Positions 1 through 35,491 of a DNA stretch of 64,000 nt are shown piece by piece (positions within the stretch are counted from its first letter, which is position 1; every line of letters begins with the position of its first letter). The notes under the pieces are model-generated. The model saw nothing but the letters and a program-made list of their open reading frames with translations, was not told the origin of the DNA and made no database searches. The translations under genes and the position numbers were made by a program. Source of the DNA: Mesotaenium endlicherianum (Eukaryota); the NCBI GenBank assembly GCA_009602735.1, contig WELA01003606.1:80770-144769 (forward strand), written 5' to 3'.

Positions 1-16
1 TGGTCAGGAGAAGTTA

Positions 17-1318
17 GTGCCAGACCCCATCAGGAGACGAGCTCTTGTGCAGGAAATGCACGAGAACACTGGACACTATGGTGTCAAGAAGACGTATAGT
101 CTTTTAGAACTGTCTTACTGGTGGAGGGGCATGAAGCAGCAGTGTGAAGATGTGATCAAGGCTTGCCAAAGCTGTGATCGCGTCAAGGCTGGTTTTATAC
201 AGCAACATCCACACTTGCAACCTTTGCCGATCATGGGCCTAGGCCACCGCTGGAGCTGCGATCTCGCAGGTGAGCTACCGCTGTCTAAGCGAGGCAACAA
301 GTATATCATGGTCATGATTGAGCATTTCTCTAAGTGGATAGAGGTCGTGCCTCTGACTGCTAAGGAGAGTCTAGGGACCGCAAAAGCGCTCCTCAATAGT
401 GTGATTGTGCGTCATGGAGCTCCAGCAGAAGTGCTGACAGACCAAGGGTCTGATTTCCAAGGGCCTTTTCAGAAACTCTTGGATAGATGCTTTATCGATT
501 ATTGCACTACGTCTAGAGATCATCCGCAAGCACATGGTCTGGCAGAAAGGATGGTGCAAACCGTTAAGTCTGCTTTGCGCAAGTTTTGCCTTGAGCATGA
601 CAAGCGTGACTGGGATCTGGCCCTGCCATGGCTGGTTATGGGTTACAGATTTAGCAAGCAGGCTGCCTTGGCGAATTACTCGCCATATTAGATACTGTTT
701 GGCAGAAGTCCAGTAGTGCCCAGCAGCACCAAGCTCGATATTGAACAGGTGAAAGACCTGGACAACCCTGATGAACTGCTAAAGGTGATGGTACGTCGTA
801 AGGCGTTATTTGAGCGCATGATGCCGGCTGCGCTGGACAATCTGAAAATTGCGCAGAAAAGAGATACGCAGCGTTACGCCAGGACGCGAGACGGGAGCTA
901 CCGCCTGCAGGTGACGCAGATTCAAGAAGGAGACTTTGTCTACCGCAAGCGCCAGACCAAGACCACCATCGACACCAGTTCAGGTGCAGTGATCTTATGC
1001 GTGAAACATGTGTTTGACAATGGTGTGTTAGAACTGGAAGGTTCTGATGGTAAAACCATGAGAGACCACGTGCAGAATTGCTCGCTATGCCATTTGCCAA
1101 ATATTGATCCTACGATTAGGGTTGTGCCCGAGGAATTGGTGCCAGCCACCCCTTCTGCCAGCTGCAAAGTGCTGGATGATCAGGAAGCAATGGTAACTTG
1201 CGATAAGTGTGGTGCCCGTTGGCACACTTTCTGCATTGGCAAGGAAGAGATTATGGCAGGACGATGGGAATGTCCTGACTCCTTTCCTAAACCCCCTAGC
1301 CGCAGGGCTGGAAAATAA
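17..1318 (+). pseudogene. F1 DDE integrase with C-terminal PHD finger (in-frame TAG at 689-691)
   Basis: HHCC (HENTGH..CQSC), WSCD / TDQGSDF / AER catalytic motifs; ORFs 17-691 and 716-1318 share a frame; C-terminal CDKC-x4-H-x2-C...WECPD is a degenerate C4HC3. Confidence 0.9.
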
Positions 1319-1353: not shown

Positions 1354-1365
1354 GAAAGGGAGGGG
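1354..1365 (+). other. Polypurine tract of F1 copy 1
   Basis: GAAAGGGAGGGG directly before TG of repeat B; identical at 27791-27802. Confidence 0.85.
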
Positions 1366-1669
1366 TGTAAGAGGAATTAAGACAAGGCAAGTATTTTTAA
1401 AATTTTCTGCTAAGTCTTAGGATAAGCAGATGGTGAGAGCTGGGTGAAGGATAACATTGCTCTGAGTGTTGGTCATGGTTGCATGGTGCAAGTTCAGGAG
1501 CCCAGGGATGGGTCAACCTTAGTAAGGCTTGTCTCCGACACACGTTCAAAGGTCGATCGACCATGTTTGCCCACACGTGAGGAGGGCCACCGACACATCG
1601 ACGAGGTCGAAGGCACACGTGCTGGAAGGCTACGCACGTGCCGAGGGATCGACACTGTTAGGCACGACA
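1366..1669 (+). repeat. F1 repeat B (B1, ~304 bp)
   Basis: TGTAAGAGGAATT...TTAGGCACGACA; other copies at 2923-3226, 17040-17343, 27803-28104 and (minus) 28223-28526. Confidence 0.95.
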
Positions 1670-1671
1670 AC

Positions 1672-2922
1672 TGTCGCGACTACTATTTGTTTGACGGTGC
1701 CGCACGCGTAGCGCAAGCTACGGCCACCCAGGTACGGAAAGTCAACGTTGACTCACCGACCACTTGACTGATTACATCGCAGTCAGCGGTTATGTCGACG
1801 TCAAGACCACTGGCAAGGGGTCAATGTGAATGTGTCCCACACCCAGGGATGGGGGAGGTTTTGACAGCATAAACAGCCGCGAGGCTAGAAGCTGGGGATC
1901 AGTGATAAGCCGCCCAGCAGGTACCAAGTCAGGTACTGTGTGACTGGCAGATTAAGCCAGGTCATGGCCGCAATGCCCAGATAGGTTACGGCCTCCCGAT
2001 TGGGAATCTTGAGCAAGTGGCATTTGCTTGTACACGCCGCTCAGGAGTTCTTAGCCATGAGCCAATTAGGCGTGACTGCCAGCTGAGAAGCTAAGCAGCC
2101 ACGCGCGACAATCACGAGGTGTGCATGCATGCCGAGTGACTACGAGTTTGAGTTGAACATGGCTAGGCAGAAGCGACATGCAGCTAAGCTTTGTGACTAA
2201 GCACGGCATTCTCGAAAGATGACGCTGTGTGGTGCCTGCGAATGGCACAAATCTTGCCTGAGACATGTCATTCACTCTCACACACTTTTGCCAAGAAGAA
2301 GGAGCAGAAGGAGCAGAAGGAAGAAGAAGGAGGGCGCAAAGAAGAAGAAGGAGTTCCCAAGGCCATTGAAGAGCCGAGGCCCCACGCTTCTGCCAACGCT
2401 GAAGATTCTTCTCAGTGTATCATAGATAAGTTAGGATTGTAGGAGTGCCCAAGAGGGAATCTCACTGTTGAAAGTAGGAGAATTGCAGAATAGAATCTGC
2501 TAGGAGAGTAGCACAGATTCGGCCGAACGTCACAAGTGTGGGTGAAGCAGCCTTAAAATGGTGAGTTGTGTGTTAGTTTCCAAGTTCTCAGAAGTCGCAT
2601 TCGCATCTCAAAGAGAGAGAGTAGTATTGGCAGATAAAGCTCTCAGTGAAGAACTGAGTGAGCCTAGCCACGCAGTGAAGAGCTGTTAAGGCGCGGAGTT
2701 AAGTGAAGAGCTTGACCCAGGCCAGCATAGACGTGTGGTTTCAGAGTTTTGTAAGCTGTGACTTGCGAAAGTTAAGCGAAAGCCTGAAGGGCGATTTCTC
2801 TGAACCTGACGTTGTATGTCAAGCTGCTTAGAGTGTAATTTCTGCAATCTACAATTTGCTCGCTTGTGAACCCAAGAACCTTAAGGCATAAAGCCTATGT
2901 GGAAGTAAGAGACTTCCGTCCT
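1672..2922 (+). repeat. F1 repeat A (A2, ~1.25 kb)
   Basis: TGTCGCGACTACTAT...GACTTCCGTCCT; other copies at 15813-17039, 17494-18739 and (minus, interrupted) 28527-36464. Confidence 0.95.
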
Positions 2923-3226
2923 TGTAAGAGGAATTAAGGCAAGGCAAGTATTTTTAAAAAATTTCGCTAATTCTTAGGATAAGCAGATGGTGAGAGCTGG
3001 GTGAAGGAGAACATTGCTCTGAGTGTTGGTCATGGTTGTATGGTGCAAGTTCAGGAGCCCAGGGATGGGTCAACCTTGGTAAGGCTTGTCTCCAACACAC
3101 GTGCGAAGGTCGACCGACCATGTTTGCCCACACGTGAGGAGGGCCACCGACACATCGACCAGGTCGAAGGCACACGTGGTGGAAGGCTACGCACGTGCCA
3201 AGGGACCAACACTGTTAGGCACGACA
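2923..3226 (+). repeat. F1 repeat B (B2)
   Basis: Second B copy joined directly to the end of A (…CCGTCCT|TGTAAGAGG…). Confidence 0.95.
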
Positions 3227-3366
3227 TCCATAACTATCTCAATACTTGACCAAATTTGATGAACTTTTTATCAAAATGTTCAAAAAAATGCATTCTACAG
3301 TGCTATACAATCAAAACATACTTTCATGAAACTCAGAAATGCACTTTATAAACCTATGACCTTACA
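3227..3366 (-). repeat. First ~140 bp of an F3 LTR, inverted
   Basis: Reverse complement matches 42395-42534 (TGTAAGGTCATA...GAGGTATGGA). Confidence 0.9.
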
Positions 3367-15812: not shown

Positions 15813-17343
15813 TGTCGCGACTATTATCCGTTTGACGGTGTCGCACGCGCAGCGCAAGCTACGGCCACCTAGTGCTGAAAGTCAACCTTGACTCACCGAC
15901 CACTTGACAGATTACATCGCAGTCAGCGGTTATGGCGGCGTCAAGACCACTGGCAAGGAGTCAATGTCAGTGTGCCCCACACCCAAGGATGGGGGAGGTT
16001 TTGACAAGACAGTCGCGAGGCTAGGAGCTGGGGATCAGCGATGAGCCGCCCAGCAAGTACCAGGTCAGGTACTGTGTGACTGGCAGATTAAGCCAGGTCA
16101 TGGCTGCAATGCCAAGATAGGTTACGGCCGCCCAGTTGGAAAACTTGAGCAAGTGGCATTTGCTTGCACGCCGCTCAGGAATTCTTAGCCATGAGCCAAT
16201 TAGGCGTGACTGCCAGCTGAGAAGCTAAGCAGCCACGCGCGACAGTCACAAGGTGTGCATGCATGCTGAGTGACTACGAGTTTGAGTTGAGCATGGCTAG
16301 GCAGAGGCGACATGCAGCTAAGTTGTGTGACTAAGCACGGCATTCTCGAAACATGACGCTGTGTGGTGCCTGCGAAAGGCACGAATCTCGCCTGAGACAT
16401 GTCATTCACTCTCACGCACCTTTGCCAAGAGGCAGAAGGAAAGAGAATAAGGGCGCGAAAAAGAAAAAGGAGTTCCCAAGGCCACTGGAGGGCCAAAGCC
16501 CCACGCTTCTGACGACACCGAAGATTCTTCTGTGTATCATAGATAAGTTAGGATTGTAGGAGTTCCCAAGAGGGAATCTCACGGTTGAAGAAGGAGAACT
16601 GCAGAATAGAATTCGCTAGGAGATTAGCACAGAGTCAGCCGAACGCCACAAGTGTGTGTGTGTGAAGCAGCCTTAAAATGGTGAGTTGTGTGTTGATTTC
16701 CAAATTCTCAGAAGTCGCATTCGCATCTCGAAGAGAGAGAGTAGTATTGACAGATAAAGCTCTCAGTGAAGAACTGAGTGAGCCCAGCCTGGCAGTGAAG
16801 AGCTGTTAAGGTGCGGTGTTAAGTGAAGAGCTTGACCCAGGCCAGCATAGACGTAGTTTCAGAGTTTTGTAAGCTGACTTGTGGAAGTTAAGCGAAAGCC
16901 TGAAGGGCGATTTTCTCAAAATCTGACGTTGCATGTCAAGCTGCTTAGAGTGTGATTTCTGCAAACTACAATTTGCTCACCTGTGAATCCAAGAACCTTA
17001 AGGCATAAAGCCTATGTGGAAGTAAGAGGCTTCCGTCCTTGTAAGAGGAATTATGGCAAGGCGAGTATTTTTTAAATTTTCTGCTAAAGTCTTAGGATAA
17101 GCAGATGGTGAGAGCCGGGTGACAAAGAACGTCACCCTGAATGTTGGTCAAGGCTGCATGGTGCAAGTTCAGGAACCCAGGGATGGGTTAACCCTGGTAA
17201 AGCTTGTCACCGACACACGTGCAAAGGTCGATCGACCATGTCTACCACACGTGAGGAGGGCCACCGACACATCAACCAGGCCGAAGGCACACGTGCTGGA
17301 AGGCTACGCACGTGCCGAGGGACCGACACTGTTAGGCACGACA
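15813..17343 (+). mobile_element. F1 solo A-B unit with perfect 4-bp TSD
   Basis: A 15813-17039 plus B 17040-17343; CTAT at 15809-15812 and 17344-17347; termini TGTCG..CGACA. Confidence 0.92.
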
Positions 17344-18862
17344 CTATTCCGCGTCGCGGCCAAGTGATACCATGTGATATGGTGTGAACCAGGCCCAGGA
17401 TTTGACAAAATCCTTGAATTTCGGCAACACCCTGACAGGGAATATATGGATTTCAGCCAACACCCGACTCAAAATGAAGGATTTTAAGAGGCATGTCGCG
17501 ACTACTATCCGTTTGACGGTGCCGCACGCGCAGCGCAAGCTATGGCCACCCAGGTACGGAAAGTCAACGTTGACTCACCGACCACTTGACTGATTTCGTT
17601 GCAGTCAGCGGTTATGTCAGCATCAAGACCACTGGCAAGGGGCCAATGTCAATGTGCCCCACACCCAGGGATGGGGGAGGCTTTGACAGCATAGACAGCC
17701 GTGAGACTAGAAGCTGGGGATCAGTAATGAGTCGCCCAGCAGGTACCAAGCCCAGTACTGTGTGACTGGCAGATTAAGCCAGGTCATGGCCGCAATGCCA
17801 AGATAGATTACGGCCGCCCGACTGGGAACCTTGAGCAAGTGGCATTTGCTTGTACACACCGTGCAAGAGTTCTTAGCCCTGAGCCAATTAGGCGTGACTG
17901 CCAGCTGAGAAGCTAAGCAGCCACGCGCAACAGTCACGAGGTGTGCAGGCATGCTGAGTGACTACGAGTTTGAGTTGAGCATGGCTAGGCAGAAGCGACA
18001 TGCAGCTAAGCTTTGTGACTAAGCACGGCATTCTCGAAGGATGACGCTATGTGGTGCCTGCGAAAGGCATGAACCTTGCCTGAGACATGTCATTCACTCT
18101 AACGCACTTTTGCCGAGAAGCAAAGGAAGCAGAAGGAAGGAGAAGAAGGGCGCGAAGAAGAAGAAGGAGTTTCTTAGGCCATTGGAGGGCCGAGGCCCCA
18201 CGCTTCTGCCGACGCTGAAGATTCTTCTCAGTGTATCGTAGATAAGTTAGGATTGTAGGAGTTCCCAAGAGGGAATCTCACTTTTAAAAGTAGGAGAACT
18301 GCAGAATAGAATCTGCTAGGAGACTAGCACAGATTCGGCCGAACGCCACAAGTGTGTGTGAAGCAGCCTTAAAATGGTGAATTGTGTGTTAGTTTCCAGG
18401 TTCTCAGAAGTCGCATTCGCATCTCGAAGAGAGAGAGTAGTATTGACGGATAAAGCTCTCAGTGAAGAACTGAGTGAGCCCAGCCTGGCAGTGAAGAGCT
18501 GTTAAGGCGCGGAGTTAAGTGAAGAGCTTGACCCAGGCCAGCATAGACGTGTGGTTTCAGAGTTTTGTAAGCTGTGACTTGCGAAAGTTAAGCGAAAGCC
18601 TGAAGGGCGATTTTCTCTGAACCTGACGTTGTATGTCAAGCTGCTTAGACTGTGATTTCTGCAAACCACAATTTGCTCACCTGGGAACTCAAGAACCTTA
18701 AGGCATAAAGCCTATGTGGAAGTAAGAGACTTCCGTCCTACTTCTGAGAACCTCGGTTCTGTGGTTCAAGTGAGTAGAAATTCCCAAGCAAATTGGGGAT
18801 TGAGGCCTGTGAGGGCCGCCGGTGCTCAACCTGGAAGGTGGCCCGGAGAAATTCAACTGTAC

Positions 18863-20560
18863 ATGCGGTTGAGGAGTGGAAGACTCTATGACCTTGTAAA
18901 GTGGAGCCTGCGGAAGGTTCTGATTCAAGCCAGAGTCCACGAGGAAGTGAGACATCTGAGCGCACGGATAACCTGTGGAGTGAGCAACCGTCGGGAGACG
19001 AGTCTCGCCATACTGCCACGAACGGTGTGAATCCGTATCACACGCAAGCCTTTGTACCCAATTTGGGCAGAGAGCACGACGTGTGGGGTAAAGATAGTGA
19101 GTCTTGGTCCCCATTCGAAATGACTGGTGATGATAAGGATGAAAATCCTAAATTCAAGTTGTCTACAAAGTGTTTTAGTGGACGAACCGGGGTAAATAGT
19201 CTCACTTTCGAAGAGTTTGATGAGATCTATTGGGCTAACTTCTTTGAGAAAATCCGACAGGAGTCTTCTTACACTCGATTAGTCGCTTTTATAAGCTTGA
19301 TTCAGTACTTGGACAAGGATGTCTTGTTGCTTAATTGCCAATTCCGGAAGGATGAGAACCTTACCCAGGAATGGGCGTTTGACAAGCAAAAGAAAGCAAG
19401 GGAGAAAGAGGCTGCGAAAGCCCGCCTTACCGCTTTGTTTTCAGGAAGAGCGATACCTGCTGCACCTGTTGAGAGCATAGACTTAGCTGCACTACACAAG
19501 AATTAACAGATGCCATGAGGCAACTCACCGAGGGTCAGCAGCGAGCGGCTACTCGAAATGATGATGTTGGGTCTGTCGCAGAATTGCGTAAAATGTGTGC
19601 AGAATTGTCTGAAAAGATTGCTATTGCTCAGGAACGAGTAACGCGCAGAGCTGCACCTTTTACAGGGCAGCATGGTGATAGTGCCACCACGGAAGCAAGC
19701 CATGCGCAAGCGTTGGCTAGTTGCTGTAGGGATATGGAGGCTGGGGATGACCAGTTAGACTCTGAGCACTGTCTGCGTCGTTTCTTTAAGTTGCTTGAAG
19801 CAAAACTCCCAGAGGATCGCAGTCATAAGGTGCACCGTTATGTGCATTTTGTCCGTCAGAAGAGCGAGACAGTGATGGAGGTCAAATCCAGATTGGTAGA
19901 CCTTGCCAAGAAGGCAGGGATCTATGAGCCTAGGATTGTGGCTGACAAATTCTTATCGTGTTTGGGTAAAGACACAGATCGGGAGGTCAGGCCGCACCTA
20001 TCTGCAAAACGCGGAATCGACTAGAACATTGACGAGGTTTCTGAAATAGCACGCAATGTCGAGGAAGGTAAAGTTTGGTACAAGGACGCGTTCAGGAAGC
20101 TTATGGCTCCTGAGAGAAGGGAGGAATCCTTTCAGCCTAATGCCAATAGCTCTAATTTTCAATTTAAGAGGAAGAGCGGGTCCTTCAATAGGTTTGCTAA
20201 GCACGCCAACACTGCTGAGACAGCAGAGGGCTGTTGGAATTGCAGAAAATCAGGACATCAGAAGAGAGATTGTCCGTACTCGGATGCTAAGCAATTGTCT
20301 TCGAGCAAGGCGCAGGTATGCGCACATTGCAGCAAAAAGGGACACTCAGAAGATGAGTATTGGTCCAAGAATCCAAATCTGAAGCCACCATGGGCTAATG
20401 CTGCCACTAAAGAGGCAGATAAGGGTAAGAAAAAGGAGAAAAATAACTATGGTAACCAAAAGGGTAACCAGAAGTACGATGCTATGAGTGCAAAGATTGC
20501 AGAGTTGAAAGCTCAAATTGTAAGACTAAATGTGCCTAATGTCTATTACGATGCAGATGT
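18863..20560 (+). pseudogene. F1 Gag with two zinc knuckles (frameshifted)
   Basis: MRLRSGR start at 18863; fragments 18901-19506, 19515-20024, 20103-; CWNCRKSGHQKRDC and CAHCSKKGHSEDEY. Confidence 0.8.
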
Positions 20561-20929
20561 GGCCGAAAGGACCGTCTTCAAAGGCGAGAAGCTGACGCCT
20601 GAGAAGGCCGTGGCTGCAACAACTTTGGAGCGTGCAGATCATGACCGTCTGGTTCCAAGGAATACTGAGAAGCTTCCTCAGACCTTTTGGATCACTCTCC
20701 ATGAGAACGAGATTGCGCAGCTACGACAAGCCAAGCCTAAGCCACGCAATACATTTAGTTTTTCGCTGGAGAAGCTGAAGGCTCTGGTGGAACATCGAAT
20801 TCAGCACATTCCTTGTCTTTCACTCGTTGATCTGCGTCTTACGTATCCTTTCACGGTTGAAGAAGCCGGACAGCAGCTGGACATAGCTGAGGAAGGCGCG
20901 AACAGCGCTTCATTGCCTACTAATTTCAG

Positions 20930-21345
20930 CACTGTGAGAGTGCAGAACAAGGATAGAGTTTTGACGTTCAACGACTGGGCCGCTCCCAATATCCTATTGG
21001 ACACTGGCGCACAGCCACTAATCTTGGGAAAGCGAGCTGTGAAAGCTCTGAAATTGACGGCAAGGGACCTGAAAGAAAGTCCTTTTCAATCGAGGACTGC
21101 ATTTGGGCAAATTTCAAAGTCTGGTGGAATCACTCGCAAGCCTGTGAAAATCACAGTAAACTTCGGGAAACCCGAGGAGGCATCACTGCTCATAGAATGC
21201 ACGGTGACAAAAGGCTGAGAACTATGATGTTCTCTTGGGGACAGAAGCCCTGATTCCCCTGGGTATGGTCATTGACCTGCGGAAGCAGAGGGTGACTTAC
21301 CAGTCGACAGATCGGCAGCCGACAGGAGAAATTCCTGTAAAATGG
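20930..21345 (+). pseudogene. F1 aspartic protease
   Basis: ILLDTGAQ active site; YDVLLG motif follows in another frame at ~21223. Confidence 0.85.
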
Positions 21346-21346
21346 T

Positions 21347-22624
21347 TTGCTCGGGAGAGGCGAACTACGGATTGCTAGACGTTGTGTGAATGACCGGTAT
21401 CCAGACCATTATGACCTCATCATGCAACGCGAAGAGGAGGGCTACACCAGCGTCAACATGCCGACTCCCTTGGTTTGGCAACCTCGGATTATGGAGCAAC
21501 TGGAAGCTGTGAGTAACAGGGACCGTGGCCCGCAAGAGCTGCTGCCAGTTCCCTACCCAATTAAGTCTGCTACCAATTTGATGCCTGGAGTAGACCCGCT
21601 GCCGCAAGGCATTGTGAGGATGGAAGATCCTTTTTGCAGGAGAGGAGTAGTAGTGCTGGAATTGTTCGCCGGACTTGGTTCTGGAACCATCTCACTGATT
21701 CAGCGAGGTATCCAGGTATCCAAAGTGCTGTATGTGGACAATGATGAGAGTGCTTTCACAGCATTTAAGGAGGTCATGAGTCAGATGCGGCAAATGCATC
21801 ATTTCAAGGCGTTGGTGCCTATTGACTCTAGTTTGGTGCGTCTTGTTGGAGGAAACGTTCTCGATGTGAAGTCTGAGGACCTGTATGGTTACAGGATTGA
21901 CTGGATCTTTACGGGATTCCCTTGTCAACCTTTCTCGCAAGCTGGGAACAGGAGGGGATTCAATCACCCGCGAGCACAACACTGGGAATGGATGGTGAAA
22001 AACATCAGTATGCTGCGGGAACGCCAGCATCTCTACCCACCAGTGTTTGTGATTGAGAATGTACATCCAGGGATGGATTACAACCAGATGAAGCGAGAAG
22101 ATCCATGGCTGGTCTTCAACTCCACCTTGGGTCATCATGTATTGATTAACGACGCTAGGCACGGAGGACTCTCACACTGGGCCTGACTATTCTGGATGAA
22201 CGGCATGTCCATTGAAATCGTGAGGGAGATGGAGGAGATTACGCGGCGCACACCAACGGCAGTATCTGTGGGAGAAGCACTGATGGTGGAAACCAAGCCA
22301 GTAATCAGGAGGGATTCCTACCCACAATACGTCGTCAACGAGCCAGGCCGGCCAAGGGTGGTGCTGCCCACCTTCACGGCATACCTAGGATCACGCGCAT
22401 TCGTGAATGGAGGACTGAGAATGGTCAAGAATGCGCACGACAAAGAAGCTCAGTGGAGAGAGCCGACAGCTGAAGAGAAGGGAAGGTGCCTGGGGGTACC
22501 CAACTCCATTGCACAAGAAATTGTTGCGATGGTGGGACAAGACGACGCTGGGAAGATATTCGGCAATATGATTGGGCATTACTCCATGACGTGGTTGGTG
22601 GAGACGATTATGACTTGGCAGTAG
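21347..22624 (+). pseudogene. Retrotransposon-borne C5 cytosine DNA methyltransferase domain (one in-frame TGA at 22184)
   Basis: Motif I VLELFAGLG (~21650), IV TGFPCQPFSQAG (~21911), VI VIENV (~22049), VIII-like HWA*LFWMN, IX-like REPTAEEKGRCLG, X IFGN (~22556), all in one frame. Confidence 0.92.
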
Positions 22625-24741
22625 ATGACGTTCTCTGACAAGCCTATGCCCAGGCCGAGACCAGTAACGATTGGAGTCCATGTGGTGCCAACCTCTGATC
22701 AGAGAGCTATCAAAGAAGCGCATCGGCGACAAGAAGAACATAGTGTTGAAAGGGACGCAGCTGAGGCTGACCAAGATGAAACACTCAGAGAAACCAGAGT
22801 GGTGGAGCTGACCAGGTGTCAAGACCTATTGGCGCGAATTGACAATCGGATGGCGGCTCTACACGACCCTCTGGAAAGAGAGCTGCGAAGGCTGCGAGAA
22901 GACGTAGCCATGAAAGACCACGCAACTGGTGCAGCAAACCCTTTGGTGAGCGCTGCAGCAAGCAAACCACAGGAGGTTCCATTATCTGCGGAACGTGCCA
23001 GCCAAGTATTTGTGAGGATGCCGAAATGGGAGGACAATACCACTTCTGAGTTACGGAACATGGCCCCAGATCAGGTCTACGGAAGCCCATCCCCAGACGC
23101 GGTAACGTCAAGATATGAAGAACGCCAGTGTAACATTGGCGAATGGGCCGAAGAATGCAGTCAGAAGTCAGGAAATTCTGGAGGGTCTGGAAAGACCATT
23201 TGCCTGGAGGTAATTTTTGAAGAACGCAGGAAGGAGACGGTCGAGAGATTGCCCGCTACACCTGTTCTGATGAACCCAGAGCCAGAGGCCAAGGGGCAAC
23301 CACAAGACACAATTGGCAGCACAGCTGAGTCGATCGCCAGGCAAATCATGGAACAATTGCTGGAAGCAGACGTCCCTTGACTCAAGGAAGAGAAAGTGGC
23401 GAAAGCAGCTCTCGCTCTACAGTCAGCCATCATCAACATGGCGAGGCTCAACACAAGAGGGGATGAAGAATGGCCGCCTCTTGGAGCAGAGAAGCCAGAG
23501 GAGGGAGAGGATGCAGAGATGCAAGGCCTTTCAGAGTTAGAGTTGCCATCACTCAACAATGAAGGGGACGCCAGGGAAGAAATTCCACGTTTTCCTACGC
23601 CAGAGTTGGATCTGCTTGACTCACAGGAGCTGAGGACAGACAACCGGGTAGCTGACCACTTGATGGAACCAAGCCCGGCAGACCTTTATGAAGAACTAAG
23701 GTCACCAATATCCAGTACCCCTGCTGCCAGTTTTTCAGTGGTAGAGCCTAAGTCAACAGTACGACCGCCGCAACGGCAGGAGGTGACTGCCTGCACTGCT
23801 AAAGTGGAGACAGCCCAAGGTAAGCCCGAGAGTCGTGCAAACAGACCAAGGAAGGTGGCCCGTGAGGGTAACGCATCTTTTAGAAGGATGCTAAAGCGAT
23901 ATTTCAAGCATAAGGGGAAGGCTCAGAGAGAGGGCGTCCCGCGAGGAACTACAGCCCCACCTTCTTTGCCTTTGCGGTATATTTTGCAGAGAGAGGGAGA
24001 GGACGGCTTGATTCGCAGGGCAATGGCATTGGGCATCAGTATGTCGCCAGGCAATAACACGCCCTTGTTGCAACTATCAAACCTTAGGATGTAGAGGCTG
24101 GAGGCACCCGCTCCCACGACACCTGCAATCCCAGAATGGGAACTGATGGATCTGAGAAACAACATCAGACGCTTAAACGCAGCAGACGATGCTTTCCTCG
24201 CACAACTAGCGGCACCTCAAAGGCCGCAAAAGTTGACGCAGGCATGGACGGTCACACCACCTGCAAGGGAGGAGTATGGCACGACCGTCGCCCGCATGGC
24301 TATTATTGAGCAAGAGTGGGGATGGGTAATCAGCCCTAGGACAGATCCTGCAGGTTGGCCAATGGCAAACCAACCTCGGCCACGTGAAGAAGGAGGAACA
24401 GGGACCAGTTGGACTGCAATCGACGAGGAAATGTTTCTGAGGCAACCCATCCGGAGGCGCCTGACGTACACCTCACCGCAGGAGAGGCGACGTGTCATTG
24501 GGAAAGGTAAAAAGCCTAGGAAACAGGCTGCAGAGCCTTTGGCAACGGAGGAGCAAGCTCAAAGCCCGCTACCCCACCTCCTAAGAATCAGGCAAAAAGC
24601 CCTGAGAGCCAGAATCAGGCAGAAAAGCCTGAGGGCCAGGATGAGGGCGGAAAGCCCCCATCTGCACCCAAGGAATAGCAACTACTGGATGCCTTTGTTG
24701 GGGAGAAGCAACCTGAAACTGAGACTTTTGCCATTGGGAAA

Positions 24742-26140
24742 ATGGTCTCAGCCCAGCAGAAAGCACAAGTAGAAAGGTTGCTGAAGAAACACCGCAAGGT
24801 GTTTGCTTTTACTAAAGAGGAGATTGGTAGAACCACTCCCGGTGTGTGTGAAATCACACTAACTACTGATAACCCAGTCAGGCTTGGGCCGCATAAGCTC
24901 AGTCAGACAGAGTGGGACTGTGTGGAGAAAACTTGCAAAGAGCTGCATAAGCTTCGCATGATTGAAAAATCTACCTCAGTGCATGGGGCTCCCACAGTAG
25001 TAGTCGCTAAAAAGGACGAGGCCGGCAATTACACTGCCACTCACATGTGTGGAGATTACAGGCGACTGAATCTCTACACGGAGCCAGACAGCTACGTGAT
25101 GCCTACACCGGAGCGGATCTTTGCGATTGCCACCACCGGAAAGGTGTTCAGCATCATCGATCTGCGCCAAGGTTTCAACCAGATCCCTGTGAAAACAGAA
25201 GATCGAGGTAAGACCGCTTTGTGGGCTCAAAGGGAACTTTGGCAATGGACAGTAATGCCATGTGGGCTGAAAAATGCCCCAGCCATATTTCAGAGGACTA
25301 TGGATAAAGTGCTGGAGGGGCTGGATTCTGCTAAACCATACATTGACGATGTGGTAGTATTCAGCAAGTCCACAGAGGAGCACCTCGAGCACTTGGAACA
25401 AGTGTTCCAGCGCCTGGAGAAATTCCAGATGAAGCTGCATCCTGGAAAGTGCAGATTCTTTGAGGCACACGTGCCTTACCTAGGACATGAGATGGGGAAC
25501 AATGCTATGTCCCCTCAGGCTATGAAGACTGAGGCCATTTACAAGATACCTGCACCTGCGAATGTGTCCAAGCTGAAAGCTCTGTTGGGGCTAAGCGGAT
25601 ACTATCGTAAGTTTATGGAGGATTATAGCAGAATTGCTAAACCCCTGACAAAACTCCTGAAAAAGGATGTGCCTTTTGTGTGGACAGAAGCTCAGGAGAA
25701 AGCTATGAACGAGCTTAAGGAGCGGCTGATAACAGCCCAGTCTTGCGAACGCCTGACTATTCCAAGCCGTTCAATCTGCACACTGACTGGAGTCGTGTGG
25801 GAATTGGCGCAGTACTCACTCAGGCCGCAAGCCCTAGAGAGGAGCATGTCATTGCCTATGCCTCACGCTCTAACAATTGAGCGGAGAGCAACTACTTGTC
25901 CTACGAAGGAGAGCTGCTGGCAGTGCTTTGGGCTGTCACACACTTGAGAGAATATCTGTGGGGAAGACCCTTCACGCTGATCACGGATCACTCACCATTA
26001 CTATGGCTGATGAAGAATGGAGACCTCACTGGTAAGTTGGCTCGCTGGGCTCTTAAGCTGCAAGAGTACCAAATGACGGTGGTGCACAGAGCAGGAGTGC
26101 TCAACAATGACGCCGATGGACTCAGCAGGAACCCAGGCCC
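24742..26140 (+). pseudogene. F1 reverse transcriptase and RNase H (frameshifted)
   Basis: MCGDYRRLN, IDLRQGFNQI, MPCGLKNAPAIFQ, YIDD; RNase H LHTDWS..GIGAVL, YEGELLAVLWAV, TDHSPL. Confidence 0.95.
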
Positions 26141-26439
26141 ATCTTTAGACGACAGAACAGGAGCTCAAGAGGGCAAAGACCCGAGCAGCCCAGCAGAGTT
26201 GGTGACCTGCCTAACCAAAATGGCTGGAATGGTAGCATCAGGTGAAGCTGAGCCTCTACTTCTGTTCAGTCCAGAGATCAGAAAAGATCAAGCTACTATG
26301 CACTGGCTGAAGACGGGAATTCACTTGGAAGGACTATCAGTGAAGGAGAAGGACCAGGTAAGCTATCGAGCTAAAAAGTTTTGCTGGAAACGCAACAACC
26401 TCTTTGAAATTGAAGGTACTGGTCAGGAGAAGTTAGTGC

Positions 26440-27755
26440 CAGACCCCATCAGGAGACCAGCTCTTGTGCAGGAAATGCACGAGAACACTGGACACTATGG
26501 TGTCAAGAAGACGTATAGTCTTTTAGAACTGTCTTACTGGTGGAGGGGCGTGAAGCGGCAGTGTGAAGCCGCTGATGCCGCTAAAGCCGCTGATCAAGAC
26601 TTGCCAAAGATGCGATCGCGTCAAGGCTGGTTTTGCTCAGCAACATCCACACTTGCAACCTTTGCCGATTGTGGGCCTAGGCTACCGCTGGAGCTGCGAT
26701 CTCGCAGGTGAGCTACCGCTGTCTAAGCGAGGTAACAAGTATATCATGGTCATGATTGAGCATTTCTCTAAGTGGATAGAGGTCGTGCCTCTGACTGCTA
26801 AGGAGAGTCTAGGGACCGCAGAAGCGCTCCTCAATGGTGTGATTGTGCGTCATGGAGCTCCAACTGAAGTGCTGACAGACCAAGGGTCTGAGTTCCAAGG
26901 GTCCTTTCAGAAACTCTTGGATAGATGCTTCATCGATCATCGCACTACGTCTAGAGATCATCCGCAAGCACATGTTCTGGCAGAAAGGATGGTGCAAACC
27001 GTTAAGTCTGCTTTGCGCAAGTTTTGCCTTGAGCATGACAAGCGTGACTGGAATCTGGCCCTGCCATGGCTGGTTATGGGTTACAGATTTAGCAAGCAGG
27101 CTGCCTTGGCGAATTACTCGCCATATTAGATACTGTTTGGCAGAAGTCCAGTAGTGCCCAGCAGCACCAAGCTCGATATTGAACAGGTGAAAGACCTGGA
27201 CAGCCCTGAGGAACTGCTAAAGGTGATGGTACGCCGTAAGGCGTTATTTGAGCGCATGATGCCGGCTGCATTGGACAATCTGAAAATCGCACAGAAAAGA
27301 GATACGCAGCGTTACGCCAGAAGGCAGACGGAAGTTACCGCCTGCAGATGACGCAGATTCAAGAAGGAGACTTTGTCTACCGCAAGCGCCAGACCAAGAT
27401 CACCATAGACACCAGTTCAGGTGCAGTGATCTTACGTGTGAAACATGCGTTTGACAATGGTGTGTTAGAACTGGAAGGTTCTGATGGTAAAACCATGAGA
27501 GACCACGTGCAGAATTGCTCGCTATGCCATTTGCCGAATATTGATCCTACGATTAGGGTTCTGGCCGAGGAATTGGTGCCCGCCACGGCTTGTGCCAGCT
27601 GCAAAGTGCTGGATGATCAGGAAGCAATGGCAACTTGCGATAAGTCTGGTGCTCGTTGGCACACTTTCTGCATTGGCGAAGAAGAGATTATCGCAGGACA
27701 ATGGGAATGTCATGATTGCAATCCTAAACCCCCTAGCCACGGGGCTCAAAAATAA
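26440..27755 (+). pseudogene. F1 copy 2 integrase plus PHD finger (~27591-27719)
   Basis: Same DDE motifs as copy 1; CASC..CDKS-x4-H-x2-C..WECHDC. Confidence 0.9.
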
Positions 27756-30623
27756 TAGCTTTCAGCAGAAAAGGCAGGGACGCCTCAGCTGAAAGGGAGG
27801 GGTGTAAGAGGAATTAAGGCAAGGCAAGTATTTTTGAACTTCCTGCTAAGACTTAAGATAAGCAGATGGTGAGGGCTGAGTAAAGTAAACAAAGCCCTGA
27901 GAGTTGGTCATAGTTGCATGGTGCAAGTTCAGGAGCCCAGGGATGGGTTAACCCTGGTAAGGCTTGTCACCGCCACACGTGCAAAGGTCGATCGACCATG
28001 TTTGCCCGCACGTGAGGAGGGCCACCGACACATCAACCAGGTCGAAGGCACACGTGCTGAAAGGCCACGCACGTGCCGAGGGATTGACACTGTTAGGCAC
28101 GACACGCATCCTCGTGCCGGGCAAAAACATTCAAAGTTTACCATTACACTGATATAAATTAGGTACAATTGTACGCATTGCAGAGGTCGGCAAAGGTCTT
28201 ACATAGACTTGTTTGATAACATTGTCGTGCCTAGCAGTGTCGGTCCCTCGGCACGTGCGTAGCCTTCCACCACGTGTGCCTTCGACCTGGTCGATGTGTC
28301 GGTGGCCCTCCTCACGTGTGGGCAAACATGGTCAATTGACCTTTGCACGTGTGTCGGAGACAAGCCTTACCAAGGTTGACCCATCCCTGGGCTCCTGAAC
28401 TTGCACCATGCAACCATGACCAACACTCAGAGCAACGTTCTCCTTCACCCAGCTCTCACCATCTGCTTATCCTAAGACTTAGCAGAAAATTTTAGAAATA
28501 CTTGCCTTGCCTTAATTCCTCTTACAAGGACGGAAGTCTCTTACTTCTACATAGGCTTTATGCCTTAAGGTTCTTGGGTTCACAAGCGAGCAAATTGTAG
28601 TTTGCAGAATTCACACTCTAAGCAGCTTGACATACAACGTCGGATTTAGAGAAAATTGCCCTTCAGGCTTTCGCTTAACTTTCACAAAGTCACAGCCTAC
28701 AAAACTCTGAAACTACACGTCTATGCTGGCCTGGATCAAGCTCTTCACTTAACACCGCGCCTTAACAGCTCTTTACTGCGAGGCTAGGCTCACTCAGTTC
28801 TTCACTGAGAGCTTTATCTGCCAATACTACTCTCTCTCTTCGAGATGCGAATACGACTTCTGAACTTCAAAACCAACACACAACTCACCATTTTGAGGCT
28901 GCTTCACCCACACTTGTGGCGTTCGGCCGAATCTGTGTTAATCTCCTAGCAGATTCTATTCTGCAGTTCTCCTACTTTCAACAGTGAGATTCCCTCTTGG
29001 GAACTCCTACAATCCTAACTTATCTATGATACACTGAGAAGAATCTTCAGCGTTGGCAGAAGCGTGGGGCCTCGGCTCTCCAATGACCTTGGCAACTCCT
29101 TCTTCTTCTCGCGCCCTTCTTCTTTTTCCTTCTTCTCCTTCTGCTCCTACTGCTTCTTGGCAAAAGTGCGTGGGAGTGAGTGACATGTCTCAGGCAAGAT
29201 TCGTGCCTTCCGCAGGCACCACACAGCGTCATCTTTCGAGAATGCCGTGCTTAGTCACAAAGCTTAGCTGCATGTCGCTTCTGCCTAGCCATCCTCAACC
29301 CAAACTCGTAGTCACTCGGCATGGATGCACACCTCGTGATTGTCGCGCGTGTGTAGTGAAACAGATAGATAAAGTACTTAGTAAAACAGAATACTTTATC
29401 TATTCAAGACAAGGATCTTTGAACACAAGTGGTAGCTTCTTGAAAGAGAGATGGCTTCTTGAAAGTTAATATATTTCTGGATTTTGGGAAGTACAAGAGT
29501 GATTCTCGAATGTCTTTCTATGTTCTAGCTCTTGTTTATATACTTGCTACATAAGTAATTTCTAGGAAGGTGTATGTTGATGTGTTGGCACCCAACACAT
29601 CCCAAAACTTGCCACCTCTTTCTAGAATAATGTACACATGTCCTTTTGACCTAAAAATGGCACATTTGACTTTTGCCACATGGAGTTCTTCTAGGTCTTT
29701 CCTCTAACTTCGAAAATGCCTTGGAAGGTTCAAAGGACATGAACCAAGTTACTAGAGTACCTATTCACACTTGACTCCACACAATACTACTCCAAATATA
29801 TTTGAAAACATTAAAATATATGCAAACTAATATATAATAACTCAAATCACTACATCACCCCCCCGATAGAAAAAGCGACGTCTCGGCGCGTCAAGTCAGG
29901 TCTTACACATGTGGAGCAAACTAGTCAACAGTTTCAAGTCAGATGCCACACATGTGAAGAGGACTAGTCAAAGGCGCCAAGTCAGGTGCTACACATGTAA
30001 GGTAGACTAGGCAAGGTCGTAGGTGGTGTGACCTTATTGGCTAGCCTACTCCTTAATGATAAAGAAAATTGTACAAGTTGGCCCAGAATCTGCCACGAAC
30101 TCAAAAATTCATAGCGGCCACAGAACTGCTCCAAATCTGAAAATTCGAGTGCCAGACGGACCGCGTCGGAGAACTCTACCGGGTCACCAAATTTGAGAGC
30201 ATTCTCATTTCTGGAGTGTCGTTGAGAGCTGAGAGAGTAGGCACTCCTCCAAATCTGTGCAGAAACTTCTGAAAATCATAAGTCCTTCTATACTTCTCCA
30301 AATTCTGCAAACTAAGTCTCAAACTGGGCGCTGTAAGATGTTCTACCAGAGTCTTGAGTTTCAGAGCATTCCAAGTTCAGGGGAGGGCACAATGTCAGAA
30401 GGCATATTCTGCCCTAACAATGCCAGCAGCCTGACCCCCTTCTACTTAGAGCATCATATCTCTCTCACCAGTGCTCCAAATTGAGCAAACTTGGACTCTA
30501 AATGACCGGCTACTCATGGACTACAGCCAGGTAAATTTTCAGAATTTATTATGCAGAGACCTATTACCAGTAGCAGTTTTAGTTTTCTGTCCAGAAACTG
30601 CGAGAAGAGAAGAGTGTCTAATG

Positions 30624-33600
30624 TCAATTTTTCCTCTTTCTTGTTCTTGCAGGCTGCCTCCAAGGGGTCTTCTGCTGCTTCTTGATGGTGGCAGGCTGCC
30701 TCCCTGAAGTCTTTGGGCTTCTAGTAGAGAGACTTGGGGCTGGTCCAAGATGGGGGCTGGCGGCATGGAAGCGCTTCAACTTTCTCTGAACTTTGTCAAG
30801 GTAGTGCGCCGCCACCCAACTATTCTTCGAATCTGGATATCCTTTCCTCTTCATCAAGTATTGCTGTTGTCTCCTGAAATTTCTCATAGCCACTATGTCT
30901 TCCACTTCGTACTCCAAATGATCATCCACTATTGTTGGGGCTAGTGGGGTTGTCACACGTCCTGGGAACTTGTTGTCGGGTTGCACATACGGCTTGAATA
31001 GGGAAGCGTGGAATACGGGGTCGATGTGCATAGTCTGGGGAAGTTCTAGCTTGAAAGCAACGGGGTTGACTTGCTGGATAATCTTGAAGGGTCCCAAATA
31101 CTTGGGAGAGAACTTGCTGCCGGCAGGCCTGTTGTTCAGGGAAATGTTCTTGGATGATAGTAACACGTTGTCACCCACTCTGTACGTAATTTCTCTTCTG
31201 GATCTATTCGCCACTCTTGCTTGAGCATCTTGCGCGTGTTGTAGAGCTTTCTTCGCTGCTGTAAGGGCTGCTTCTAATGTCTCCATAAAATTGGTGGCTG
31301 CAGGTACTTCATCAAGGCCAGCCGTGAAGCTCAGTGGCGTGGTCGGATGGAATCCATAGTTGAGGAAGAATGGGGACTCTTAGGTAGAGGCTTGCGTTGT
31401 GTTGTTGTAGGCAAACTCCAAGGGGGTCAAGTACATGTCCCAATCTTGCTCCAGAGTAGACACGTAGGCCTTTAGAGAGGTCTTTAGAGTACAATTCATA
31501 CGCTCGGTTTGCCCATCTGATTGCGGGTGGTAGGCAGTGGACATATCCAGCGATGTACCCAAGTTCTTGAAGAGATTTTTCCAGAAATGGCTTGTGAATC
31601 TTGGGTCTCTATCTGACACAATTCTTGATGGTAGTCCATGGAGTCGGAAGATGTTGTCAAAGATGAGTCTTGCAAGTTGTGGTGCTGTAGCCTTAGTCGT
31701 CGTGGGAATAAAATGAGCCATCTTGGTAAGTCTGTCCACCGCCGTGAGTATTGCATTATGGCCTCGAGGTGTCACGGGCAAGTCCACGATAAGGTCCATT
31801 GAGATGTCCGTCCATTGTCTTTCGGGGATTGGTAGTGGTTGGAGGAGTCCTCCCGCCTTTTGCGATGATGGCTTGATTCTTTGGCATGTGTCACAGCTCC
31901 TGCAGTACTCCTTGACTTGCTTAGACATGCCTGGCCAACAATAAGTCCTAGCTAGAACGCCCGTGGTCCTTAGGATTCCAAAGTGTCCTCCAAGAGGGTT
32001 GTCGTGTGCTTCTCGTAGAAGCAAGAGCCGGAGGTCTAAGTCATTAGGAACACATCTCTGGCCCGTATCTTGCCTCACCCAATAATTGCCTTCTTGCTTC
32101 TTGCATGGGTCCAAGGCTGCTTCTCCGTTCTTGTAGTAAGGGTCTCTTTCATAGGCGGCTGAAAATCGAGCTTCCAGATCTGTCTTCAGGGATACCATCA
32201 CTGCATTTAATTGCAGTCTTGAGAGGGGGTCAGCCGGGTTTGTCTTGCCGGGCTGGTACTGAATCGTGATGTTGTATTGTTGCAAGTATCCGCTCCATCT
32301 TGCTTGTCTCCTTGAGAGATACGGCTGCGTTTGGAGGTGCTTTAACGCCTCGTGGTCCGTGGTGACCAGTACTTTGCGTCCTTCAACGTAGCAGCGCCAA
32401 ACCTTCAAGGCATGTACAATCGCCAATGCCTCTCGCTCCGTGGTTGTATAATTTTGCTCGGCTGGATTTAGCTTCCTTGACTCGTAGGCGATGGGCTGCA
32501 GTCCCTTGCCTTGGTCTTGAAGCAGGATTGCTCCTATTGCATAGGAAGATGCATCGGTGATGACGTGGAAGGGCCAATCTGGGTTTGGACTTGGGAGTGT
32601 GAGCACCGGGGATGTGGTCAATCTTCGCTTTAACTCTTGAAATGCCTCTTCCTCTTTCTCGGTCCATGTATATAGCCTGTCCTTCTTGAGTAGATCTGTC
32701 AGGGGGGCTGCTATGTGCGAGAAGCCTTGGATGAATTTTCTGTACCAATTGGCAAATCCCAAGAATGACTGGAGTTCTTTCTTGGTCGTGGGGGTTGGCC
32801 ATTCCTCCACCACCGTGGTCTTCTTGGGGTCTATCTTGATGCCATCAGCAGTCACGTGGAGACCTAGGAACTCCACTTCTTGTTTGGCAAACTCGCATTT
32901 TGACTCCTTCGCAAACAGCTTGTTTTGCTTCAATACTTCAAGGACTTCTTTCAAGTGTCTCGCATGCTCTTCAAGGGTCTTGCTGTAGATAAGGATGTCA
33001 TCGATGAATACCACCACAAATCTGTCCAACATGGGCTGAAATATGGTGTTCATCATAGTCATGAAAGTTGCTGGCGCGTTGGTGAGTCCAAATGGCAGGA
33101 CCATGAACTCAAAATGTCCATATCTTGTCCTGAATGCCGTCTTCTCTATGTCCGGTTCTGCGATGCGAATCTGGTGGTAGCCGCTCCGTAAGTCAATCTT
33201 CGTGAAGTACTTGGCTCCAACCAGCCGGTCCATGAGCTCATCCATGCGCGGCAGCGGGTATCGATTCTTGATGGTGATCTTGTTGAGGGCGCGATAGTCC
33301 ACACACATCCTCAAGGTACCATCTTTCTTCTTGACAAATAGCACCGGGGCTCCAAATGGCGACTTGCTAGGTCGAATGAAGCCATGCTCCAGTAGCTCCT
33401 TGATTTGCTTCTTGACTTCGTCTAGCTCCGTGTATGACATTTTGAACGTAGGCCGAGAGATGGGCTTGCTTCCGGGCTCCAACTCTATCTTGTGGTCTAC
33501 GAATCTTTTGGGGGGTAGGCCCTTGGGCAATTCCGGGGAGAACACTTCTTTGTAGTCCTCTAAGACTTCTTGTATCTCCTTGGGAACGGGGCTGCCTTCT

Positions 33601-34289
33601 TGACTCTCGATGTCTTTCTTGATGTCTTTTGGCGTGATCAAGGCCAAAAGAAGCTCGTGTCCCTTCCTCACAAGTCTCTTGAGTTGGAGGGCGGACAATA
33701 GTATCTCGTGTGCCGGCTTCTGGATGTCTTGGGTCTGGATATTCTGGATTGCGCGCAAAATACAGATTCTTGAAGTGATGTCATTCTTGATCTTGATAGT
33801 ACCGGTCCTCCAATCAACTTGGGGGTTGTGCTTGGTCAACCAAGGCGTCCCTAGGATGACGTCGTACTTGCCCAATTGCATGGGGGAGAACACTACTCTA
33901 TCCTTGAAGGACTTGATAGAGAGTGCCAAGGGGTACGTCTTCTTGGAAGGGGTAGTATAGGAGAATCCATCGGGCATCATAATCTCCTCGTCGTGGTCAA
34001 GAGTTCGCATAGTAATACCGTGCTTGGTGGCAAAATCTGCAGCAATGAAGTTGCCTTGAGCTCCGCTATCCACCAAGATGTGGACCTTCTCTCCTCCAAG
34101 GTAACCTCTCAAACTCATTGGGGCTGGAACGTCGTCTTCAACGGGGGTCTCCACCTCACTTGGCGTGTTGCCTTCTCGTGAAGTGGGTCTTGGGGTGGTA
34201 GGCTCCTGGCCTACCGGCGCTGTCCGTTTTTTGACAACTTTTTGGGGCATGAAAGTGCACGATGGCCCTTTTCCTTGCAATAAAAGCAT
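30624..34289 (-). pseudogene. F2 Pol (PR-RT-RH-IN-chromodomain), premature TAA at 31380-31382
   Basis: LVDSGA, FIDD, TDASSY, HHCC and DDE, YEVEDIV..YLMKRKGY..SW; TAA replaces the CAA seen in copy 2. Confidence 0.93.
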
Positions 34290-35491
34290 AGTCCAGCCGT
34301 CATGAGAGCTTCTTTTTCAGCCGGGGAGAGTCTTGCTTTCACTCCTTGCTGGTTTCTTGCATCATAAGTGTCATTGGAGGGTCTTCCACTCTTCCGGGCA
34401 GCCGCGGGGTCCCTTTTAATAACTCCGATTTCCATGGGTGTGGGTCCAGATTCGGATGTGGAAGGGGCTGCGTACACCCGCGTCGTCGGTACCCGTGAAG
34501 ATGAAGGCACGGAGTGCTTGAAATCCAAGGTATCCACCTTTTGGGCCACTTCAATGATCTTTGAGAAGTCCGTCAAGTCGCGTAACTCCACTTCCTTTGC
34601 CACCTTGGGTTTGAGGCCAAAGATGTAGCGGTCAATCTTCTCCTCGAGAGACATGTTGGGGATCTCAAGAGTGAGGGCGTGAAATCTGGATGTATACTCT
34701 TGAACGGACGTCGTTTGCTTGAGATGGTGGAGCTTTCCTCGGGCAATCTTCTCCGCATTGATGGGCATGAATTGCTTCTTGAGGGCCTCACGAAAATCTG
34801 CCCATCTTGCATATGATGGTGGGGGCTCTTGGCCGAGCATGGGGTGCGCCATAGCTTGATATATAGCCGCTTGATAGTTACGCCACCATGATGTTGCTGC
34901 TCCTCTAAGTAAGGTAACGGCAAAGGGAACGTAGTCCTCCTCGGGTACTTCAAGGAATGCGAGGTACGTCTCCACTTGGTAGAGCCATAAATTCAGGTTG
35001 GCACCTTTCCCGGGGTTGAAAGTGTCGGGTTTGCCGGGCTTGATGAGTTTCCTTGCTCTCGTTGGCTCTTGTGGAGGCGCTTGAGCCGGGGCTGGATTTT
35101 GAGCATTGCTCGCAATAGGGGCAACCATGGCAGCCATAGCTTCTCTTGACGCTTGCACGGTTGCTTCATAGGTGGCCAAGCCCACTTGGTTGTGGACGGT
35201 CATTAGGAAGGCTGCCCACTCATTTGCGGGAACTCCTTGTGGTGGGGTCAACTTTGCTATAGCGGCTGCCACGGGATTTGACGGTGCTCCTCCTTGTGGT
35301 GCTTCTTGTTGTTGGAGATTTCCTTGAGTAGGCTCTCCCATCGACGCTGGAGGAGGGTGTGCTCCTCCTTGTGGTGCTTCTTGTTGTTGCAGATTTTCTT
35401 GAGTGGGCTCTCCCATCGGCGCTGGAGGAGGGTGTCTTGGAGAGGAAGGGCTTCCTTCGAAAGCTTGCTGTTGGTCTTGAGGATCGGCCAT
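34211..35491 (-). CDS. F2 Gag (426 aa, CCHC zinc knuckle)
   Basis: Retrotransposon gag signature ([11 protein letters not shown]), [22 protein letters not shown]; same protein as 56339-57619. Confidence 0.92.

Follow-up and report, generated by a model that had tools for sequence, protein, structure and literature searches.

Repeat architecture at the locus

The window, by which we mean the whole 64-kb stretch of Mesotaenium endlicherianum DNA analysed here, contains two copies and two solo units of a Ty3/gypsy element whose terminal repeats are split into two parts, A and B. The features on which the analysis rests are the following.

2..1318, plus strand: copy 1, 3' end of pol, with integrase zinc finger, DDE core D,D(34)E and C-terminal PHD finger
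1354..1365, plus strand: copy 1 PPT, identified from sequence, adjoining B1
1366..1669, plus strand: copy 1 B1, 304 bp, from self-BLAST; first part of the reverse-transcribed LTR, ending in CGACA
1665..1676, no strand: putative internal attachment site CGACA-AC-TGTCG, the core of which also occurs in the relatives L120-L124 and in Chlamydomonas entries
1670-1671: copy 1 spacer AC, between B1 and A2
1672..2922, plus strand: copy 1 A2, 1251 bp, starting with TGTCG and containing the predicted RNA start and R-U5
2584..2595, plus strand: A2 copy of the predicted 5' self-primer, a 12-nt complement of the PBS
2923..3226, plus strand: copy 1 B2, 304 bp, fused to A2 with zero extra bases; its CGACA is the right integration end
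3227..3230, plus strand: TCCA, half of a duplication, to the right of copy 1; its partner TGCA lies beside solo 2, and the empty paralogue has the site at 42531-42534
15813..17343, plus strand: solo A-B number 1, with a perfect CTAT duplication
17494..18739, plus strand: copy 2 A1, with the left integration end TGTCG
18398..18411, plus strand: copy 2 predicted RNA 5' end and self-primer, a perfect 14-nt PBS complement
18740..18753, plus strand: copy 2 predicted self-priming PBS, immediately 3' of A1
18892..21215, plus strand: copy 2 gag, with a zinc knuckle, and aspartyl protease, interrupted by stops and frameshifts
21341..22621, plus strand: copy 2 C5 cytosine methyltransferase domain, with one stop inside (PF00145, 1e-16; TIGR00675, 1e-12)
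24679..27755, plus strand: copy 2 RT, RNase H, integrase and PHD, the frames disrupted by stops and frameshifts
27791..28104, plus strand: copy 2 PPT and B (B at 27803-28104), with the right integration end CGACA and a GGCA/CGCA duplication
28223..36464, minus strand: solo A-B number 2, split by a nested chromodomain gypsy element (29352-36031)
42395..43148, no strand: empty paralogue of the host repeat found to the right of copy 1 and on the A side of solo 2

The repeat map was built from a self-BLAST of the window and from junction print-outs; the 5' end of copy 1 lies outside the window, and its A1 is therefore not part of the map. Both sources agree on the layout that a first-pass annotation had described, in which paired LTRs are lacking: copy 1 ends in PPT-B-AC-A-B, copy 2 reads A-ORFs-PPT-B, and there are two solo A-B units. 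Within the window the copies are 88-96% identical to one another, and the A|B joint reads CCGTCCT|TGTAAG in 3/3 of them. All outer ends are TGTCG and CGACA, as had been claimed from the first reading of the sequence, and 4-bp duplications, likewise named there, occur at 3/3 testable sites, one perfect and two with one mismatch. The duplication of solo 1 (CTAT/CTAT) is the one without mismatch, while that of copy 2 is GGCA/CGCA, where three empty-site contigs from public run X1 show four letters that fit either side.

The two flanks of solo 2 do not match each other, and its A-side flank TGCA and the right flank TCCA of copy 1 are the halves of a single site in the empty paralogue. The swapped B-side flanks of the copy 1 A-B unit and solo 2 are probably the result of an inversion by recombination spanning 3227-28222, a reading based on the TGCA/TCCA pair and on B1 being nearer to the B of solo 2 (96.1% identity) than to B2 (94.1%). 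If so, ATGT would be expected to the left of copy 1. Exons of a host zeta-carotene desaturase, at about 8070-11380 on the minus strand (TIGR02732, E down to 7e-44), lie inside the probable inversion and mark the host as a photosynthetic eukaryote.

Two ordinary chromodomain gypsy copies, at 29352-36031 (minus strand) and 55799-62477 (plus strand), are 98.8% identical, have 503-bp LTRs and carry 5-bp duplications (GCGTG and TATGC); further fragments lie at 48635-52135. Their primer site, TGGTATC, is presumably of the tRNA-Met type, and the copies were used as an internal control of ordinary elements. At 44876-45719, a 210-bp tandem repeat in 3-4 copies (65-81%) lies over a minus-strand ORF with a zinc knuckle.

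Encoded proteins and phylogenetic placement

The element is a Ty3/gypsy retrotransposon that encodes a protease, a C5 methyltransferase, RT, RNase H, a DDE integrase and a PHD finger. Copy 2 has these in the order gag, protease, C5 methyltransferase, about 700 codons, RT, RNase H, integrase and PHD, thus including the PR-RT-RH-IN order of Ty3/gypsy LTR retrotransposons, and the best solved-structure match of a profile of the clade is Ty3 Gag-Pol (E 3e-143). The roughly 700 codons between methyltransferase and RT (22625-24770) gave no Pfam match. The pol of copy 1 has one stop (689-691) and matches PF17921 (4e-17), rve (6e-11) and PHD (6e-5), with the catalytic triad at D87, D147 and E182. The presence of rve and the triad, together with duplications of 4 bp at all testable sites, supports the earlier assignment of integration to a DDE integrase. 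Tyrosine recombinases were looked for by Pfam search in 16 frames of copy 2 and 10 ORFs of the relatives described below, with no match.

In a FastTree phylogeny of RT (midpoint root; rows covering <230 residues dropped), the element falls in a clade of 55 of the 145 sequences with support of 1.0. This clade holds all hits in the tree labelled as PHD- or methyltransferase-bearing and includes proteins of Klebsormidium, Coleochaete, Closterium, Calypogeia and Pleodorina; the nested chromodomain gypsy falls outside it. The spacing between the second D and the E of the integrase is 34 in 78/78 pattern-matched proteins of the clade (of 106) and 35 in 54/55 matched outsiders (of 91), the lone exception being itself a PHD-bearing relative. 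The copy 2 methyltransferase matches 11/11 DNMT-bearing relatives tested, and a search for homologues of the methyltransferase returned zero matches at 1e-15. The methyltransferase is an addition to what the first-pass annotation described, as are the self-priming site and the GC spacer treated below.

Predicted priming sites do not coincide with integration ends

Two features of Ty3/gypsy elements, a PBS after the 5' repeat and a PPT before the 3' repeat, are present. What the element does not have is two identical LTRs with outer ends that are the primer-defined ends of the cDNA: on the left there is A only, and on the right B-nn-A-B. The PBS at 18740-18753 adjoins the end of A1 and is perfectly complementary to 18398-18411 within A. 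No inverted match in the region is longer than this 14-nt pairing, a length that 0/100 shuffles reached, and the pairing closes a predicted fold (z -3.3). At the other side, the junction sequence confirms that the PPT adjoins B, which is not an integration end. With the PBS adjoining A and the PPT adjoining B, standard reverse transcription would yield an LTR of the form B-nn-A, and the PPT|B boundary and the 14-nt self-priming site right after A thus uphold the permuted LTR proposed from the first reading. The right ends defined by reverse transcription are CCT (in the window element), TTC and CCC, and never CA. Judged from these boundaries, the integration ends lie inside the predicted reverse-transcribed LTR, at the palindrome GACA-GC-TGTC. 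Since primer sites and integration ends differ, an end-joining step and an internal cut would be forced. The 160 RNA reads from three runs (38, 26 and 96) showed no pile-up at an RNA start or end, and some of them run in from the flanks.

The internal junction recurs in public contigs

As had been proposed, the B-nn-A junction is not a one-off, and it recurs in many DNA contigs of runs X1, X4 and X5. Among public contigs aligned to copy 2, the B-nn-A joint was found in four of X1 and one of X5, and the A|B joint is present in contigs of X1, X5 and X19. In X1, 78 contigs have loose and mutually unlike flanks before 17494, the start of A, and minor A|B joints carry extra letters, either T or one or two PBS-like bases. 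In X4, 34 contigs read G at 1670 (depth 30,755 of 31,925). This greatly exceeds the depth of single listed contigs (47-172), which we use as a hint since contig depth is no copy number. Since these 34 contigs run through 1670 at high depth, a unique junction event is excluded. A solo LTR that landed by chance 2 bp from another end was rejected, given the recurrence of the junction in X1, X4 and X5 and in unrelated families.

The spacer itself calls for a partial correction. The 2-nt gap between B1 and A2 stands as first described, but AC is a local variant, with G at 1670 in the 34 contigs and GC in the relatives; AC as the functional spacer was rejected. We infer that the majority spacer of the family is GC, position 1671 being absent from the rows listed for X4. 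Both the AC of the window and a GT seen in public contigs are one transition away from GC.

In X4, 46 contigs depart from the reference after 1762, and one diverged contig of 179 nt spans the junction (1594-1762). A second subfamily thus likely shares the attachment site and the first 90 bp of A.

Distant relatives carry the same site

Seven contigs (L120-L126) with an integrase 45-56% identical to that of the window element were found in prokaryote genome bins. They are intact or near-intact plant or algal retrotransposon contigs in five such bins, where they are likely contamination. L125 and L126 stop 66 and 157 bases past pol and were placed outside the site count. In 5/5 testable relatives, a PPT is followed by a B of about 55-113 bp and then by GACA-GC-TG(TC). 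Shuffled sequences contained the site motif in 49-92 of 20,000 cases per locus (509 of 20,000 in L123, a truncated contig), and the motif occurs in 0/4 ordinary control elements. Beyond this motif the repeats of the relatives share nothing with those of the window. Because L120 and L121 belong to one family and L122 and L124 share a longer core, we count about three independent families. A third match to the motif in the L120 bin was rejected as unrelated, bacterial-looking DNA.

The whole 3' end, PPT-B1-GC-A2-B2-flank, is present in L121. L120 has a self-priming pair of 13 nt with different letters (reached in 2/100 shuffles; z -3.5), L122 has a match of 12 nt, a length that 18/100 shuffles reach, and in L124 a self-priming pair was not found. 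The methyltransferase lies between protease and RT in the window element and L120, unlike in L123 (3061-9516), where it lies between RNase H and integrase and a Tudor-like domain follows the PHD. A metagenome scan for the junction with a loose pattern gave 0/118 stored loci that match the element by BLAST, and scans of viral contigs gave solely ordinary gypsy-like outgroups (4/66 loci of one scan inspected).

Chlamydomonas families with the split layout

Entries of C. reinhardtii were inspected by eye in the repeat library of PMC9940879 ("Gypsy" matches 6-35, 37-66 and 79-138 of 158). The 10-nt core lies just 3' of a G-rich tract in 9/11 of its matches in this library. Among the matches listed, 22 numbered Gypsy families have a 3' internal end, and the CA-GC-TG junction is found in 11 of them (families 2, 3, 6, 7, 8, 9, 10, 11, 14, 18 and 22), in which the internal part ends with a copy of the last bases of the LTR plus GC; another 7/22 are ordinary and 4/22 unclear. 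Gypsy-14, -18, -22, -3, -6 and -7a resemble the window element in having PPT-B-GC-A-B 3' ends, with a B of 6-55 bp as opposed to 304 bp. Gypsy-14a_cRei is a whole A1...PPT-B1-GC-A2-B2 entry with a 34-spaced integrase and a PHD, which, together with the complete 3' end in L121, establishes the full form A1-ORFs-B1-nn-A2-B2 that had been deduced from the incomplete copies of the window. By eye, Gypsy-3_cRei has a 14-nt self-priming pair, whereas Gypsy-7, -8 and -9 have tRNA-type (TGG) primer sites, unlike the predicted self-priming site of the window element. In the entries of Gypsy-5a, -21 and -24, GC-TGT directly follows the LTR as the first letters of the internal part; to judge from these sequences, they are possibly a mirror product A-B-GC-A or multi-site arrays.

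Gypsy-7a_cRei has a PPT, an 8-bp B, GC and then an LTR that ends in the same 8 bp; it is likened to the window element by this junction layout alone and not by clade placement. According to a 2022 figure legend, its left LTR is without the last 8 bp of the right LTR (PMC9940879; bioRxiv 2022.06.16.496473). The accessible text of the preprint reports 86 new insertions of Gypsy-7a in one laboratory strain, mostly of one full copy, with a few of less or more and no solo LTRs (bioRxiv 2022.06.16.496473). Because these new insertions are mostly full and never solo, integration appears to involve the full split form, and solo units likely arise later. In the accessible parts of the same sources the Chlamydomonas families are filed as ordinary LTR/Gypsy and the junction is left unexplained (PMC9940879; bioRxiv 2022.06.16.496473).

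How the split layout could be regenerated

The layout is real, clade-wide and mechanistically unusual. To account for it, we lean slightly towards a cycle in which the two ends of the cDNA are joined to each other and the element's own DDE integrase opens the resulting circle at the internal site. The starting point, which is the observed part, would be the full form as it stands in the genome, A1-PBS-ORFs-PPT-B1-GC-A2-B2, with its TG...CA ends and its 4-bp duplications. Its RNA is predicted from the sequence to run from inside A1 to inside A2, with the first 12-14 nt pairing with the PBS, and standard LTR reverse transcription would convert it to a linear cDNA [B-GC-A]-ORFs-[B-GC-A]. Since the right end of this cDNA is not CA, it would be a poor integrase substrate. 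The end of A would instead be ligated to the start of B, so that the A|B joint would be remade in each cycle; it would have to be made anew because an RNA with its 5' end in A1 and its 3' end in A2 provides no template for it. The integrase would then nick each strand of the symmetric GACA-GC-TGTC upstream of the PBS just after CA, and the 2-nt stagger would leave two ends like processed retroviral ends, whose strand transfer would give A1-ORFs-B1-GC-A2-B2. Later recombination between A1 and A2 would produce solo A-B units and that between B1 and B2 would produce A-ORFs-B, both of them replicative dead ends.

The extra letters at some minor joints of X1 are consistent with joining de novo and count in favour of the circle. 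Against it counts the exact A|B joint in the three window copies, which is cleaner than usual end joining. Since a two-LTR circle has two such sites, a bias against opening on the PPT side must also be assumed; the product of such an opening, A-B-GC-A-ORFs-B, was not found in the window, and the Gypsy-5a, -21 and -24 entries may represent it. That an integrase can cut a palindromic LTR junction into two processed ends has been described for foamy virus (PMC1180852).

The alternative that survives best, although we consider it unlikely, replaces the circle by an end-to-end template jump, in which the RT leaves the end of A and resumes at the start of B, so that no closed circle is formed and the integrase trims both ends at internal sites. 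Such a jump would account for the PBS-side layout being the only common one and for joints that are mostly exact with rare extra letters, and it fits the Gypsy-7a insertions of more than one full copy. The difficulty is that the end of A and the start of B share no sequence, so that a homology-free jump would be required in every cycle.

It is improbable that the A2|B2 joint is instead copied from an RNA that continues through B2, by strand transfers between split repeats as in PAT or Ngaro. Exact joints would follow directly, and PAT, Ngaro and Viper have the same A1-B1-A2-B2 layout (as the accessible part of PMC4157794 describes it). However, a primer at the PBS after A1 would copy R-U5 only, and this shares no homology with B2; B1 comes after a normal PPT; and variants of the joint do occur.

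Still harder to sustain is an origin from ordinary A-B LTR elements, or A-ORFs-B units, inserting beside their own ends with GC as a remnant. With its TG...CA ends and its TSD, a solo A-B does resemble a normal solo LTR, and contigs cover A two to three times as deeply as the ORFs. But the junction has no gap of TSD size, only two bases that are conserved across unrelated families, the PBS follows A and the PPT precedes B and they are never at the A-B ends, and new Gypsy-7a copies retain the asymmetry. Nor is there a B-to-PBS or PPT-to-A joint, or a loose end behind B, among the 15 joint rows listed of 193, beyond which ordinary A-B or B-A LTR copies could lie. A tyrosine recombinase acting in trans, with the junction as recombination core, would match the layout of tyrosine-recombinase elements and the palindromic junction, but it is hardly credible given the lack of any recombinase match in the frames and ORFs searched and the conserved DDE triad; 4-bp duplications that vary, and ends that have lost the spacer, fit DDE strand transfer.

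In textbook LTR elements and retroviruses the linear cDNA is integrated by its ends, and two-LTR circles are treated as dead ends, a view that has been debated. On present sequences we regard it as an evenly balanced proposition that a clade spanning the green lineage (chlorophytes, charophytes including the host of the window, and liverworts) has uncoupled the ends of reverse transcription from those of integration, that its linear cDNA does not integrate as a copy able to replicate, and that it passes in every generation through an end-joined two-LTR circle opened at GACA-GC-TGTC by its D,D(34)E integrase. If this is true, these would be the first LTR elements with a two-LTR circle as the obligatory integration precursor, with a laboratory-active example in Chlamydomonas, and the presence of the junction in laboratory-active Gypsy-7a_cRei makes the question of the circle directly testable. 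Dating of insertions by LTR divergence would mislead for such elements. A DNA methyltransferase and a PHD finger are further features of the clade.

Comparison with known systems

The first-pass annotation knew of no described DDE gypsy family with this layout. That statement has to be withdrawn, since the legend of Fig. 4c in PMC5890265 describes KnitGypsy-Dnmt3 of Klebsormidium nitens in this way, with DIRS-type repeats (A-coding-B-A-B there) and Gypsy domains (de Mendoza et al. 2018, PMC5890265). By its description, which is the basis of the comparison, KnitGypsy-Dnmt3 is like the window element in its Gypsy domains, in the C5 methyltransferase within pol and in the A-coding-B-A-B order (PMC5890265). 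The K. nitens protein P0178 falls in the same RT clade as the window element, and K. nitens proteins are its top integrase matches. The accessible parts of that paper give no mechanism, attachment site, priming mode or TSD for KnitGypsy-Dnmt3, and its main text does not contain the words "circular" or "target site" (PMC5890265). As far as the literature searched goes, the split layout of a DDE gypsy is in print once, in this legend, and is so not categorically new. New here are the palindrome at the internal site, the permutation of the reverse-transcribed LTR as read from the sequence, and the link to the laboratory-active Gypsy-7a. An account of the internal-site mechanism was not found in the literature searched, outside which lay Repbase, Dfam, the Craig 2021 thesis, subscription journals and figures, and the layout is not treated in the accessible part of a further preprint (10.64898/2026.05.21.726589). 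Because long-B elements are without paired LTRs, LTR finders would miss them, and the REXdb survey, which according to its accessible text demanded paired LTRs, would not have collected long-B forms (PMC6317226).

The split direct repeats A1-B1-A2-B2 are shared with the tyrosine-recombinase retroelements PAT, TOC1, Ngaro and Viper (PMC4157794, accessible part). In place of a tyrosine recombinase, the window element has a DDE integrase, along with a protease, PPT, PBS and 4-bp duplications. Its predicted self-priming resembles that of Tf1 and Tcn1, in which, in the parts of the sources available, the RNA 5' end is complementary to the PBS over 11 nt in Tf1 as against the predicted 12-14 nt here (PMC7175516, PMC6317226); these elements differ in their ordinary paired LTRs, the ends of which are the integration ends (PMC7175516, PMC6317226). 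The cleavage proposed here resembles that of two-LTR junctions in foamy virus and HIV, where a DDE enzyme cuts a palindromic CA-nn-TG into two active ends (PMC1180852, accessible part). In these viruses, as in the insertion sequences compared below, the site is the joint of two DNA ends, whereas the elements described here carry it permanently within the LTR, at a distance of 6-304 bp from the joint. The insertion sequences are IS3, IS21 and IS30, in whose junction transposition a DDE enzyme likewise cuts a palindromic junction.
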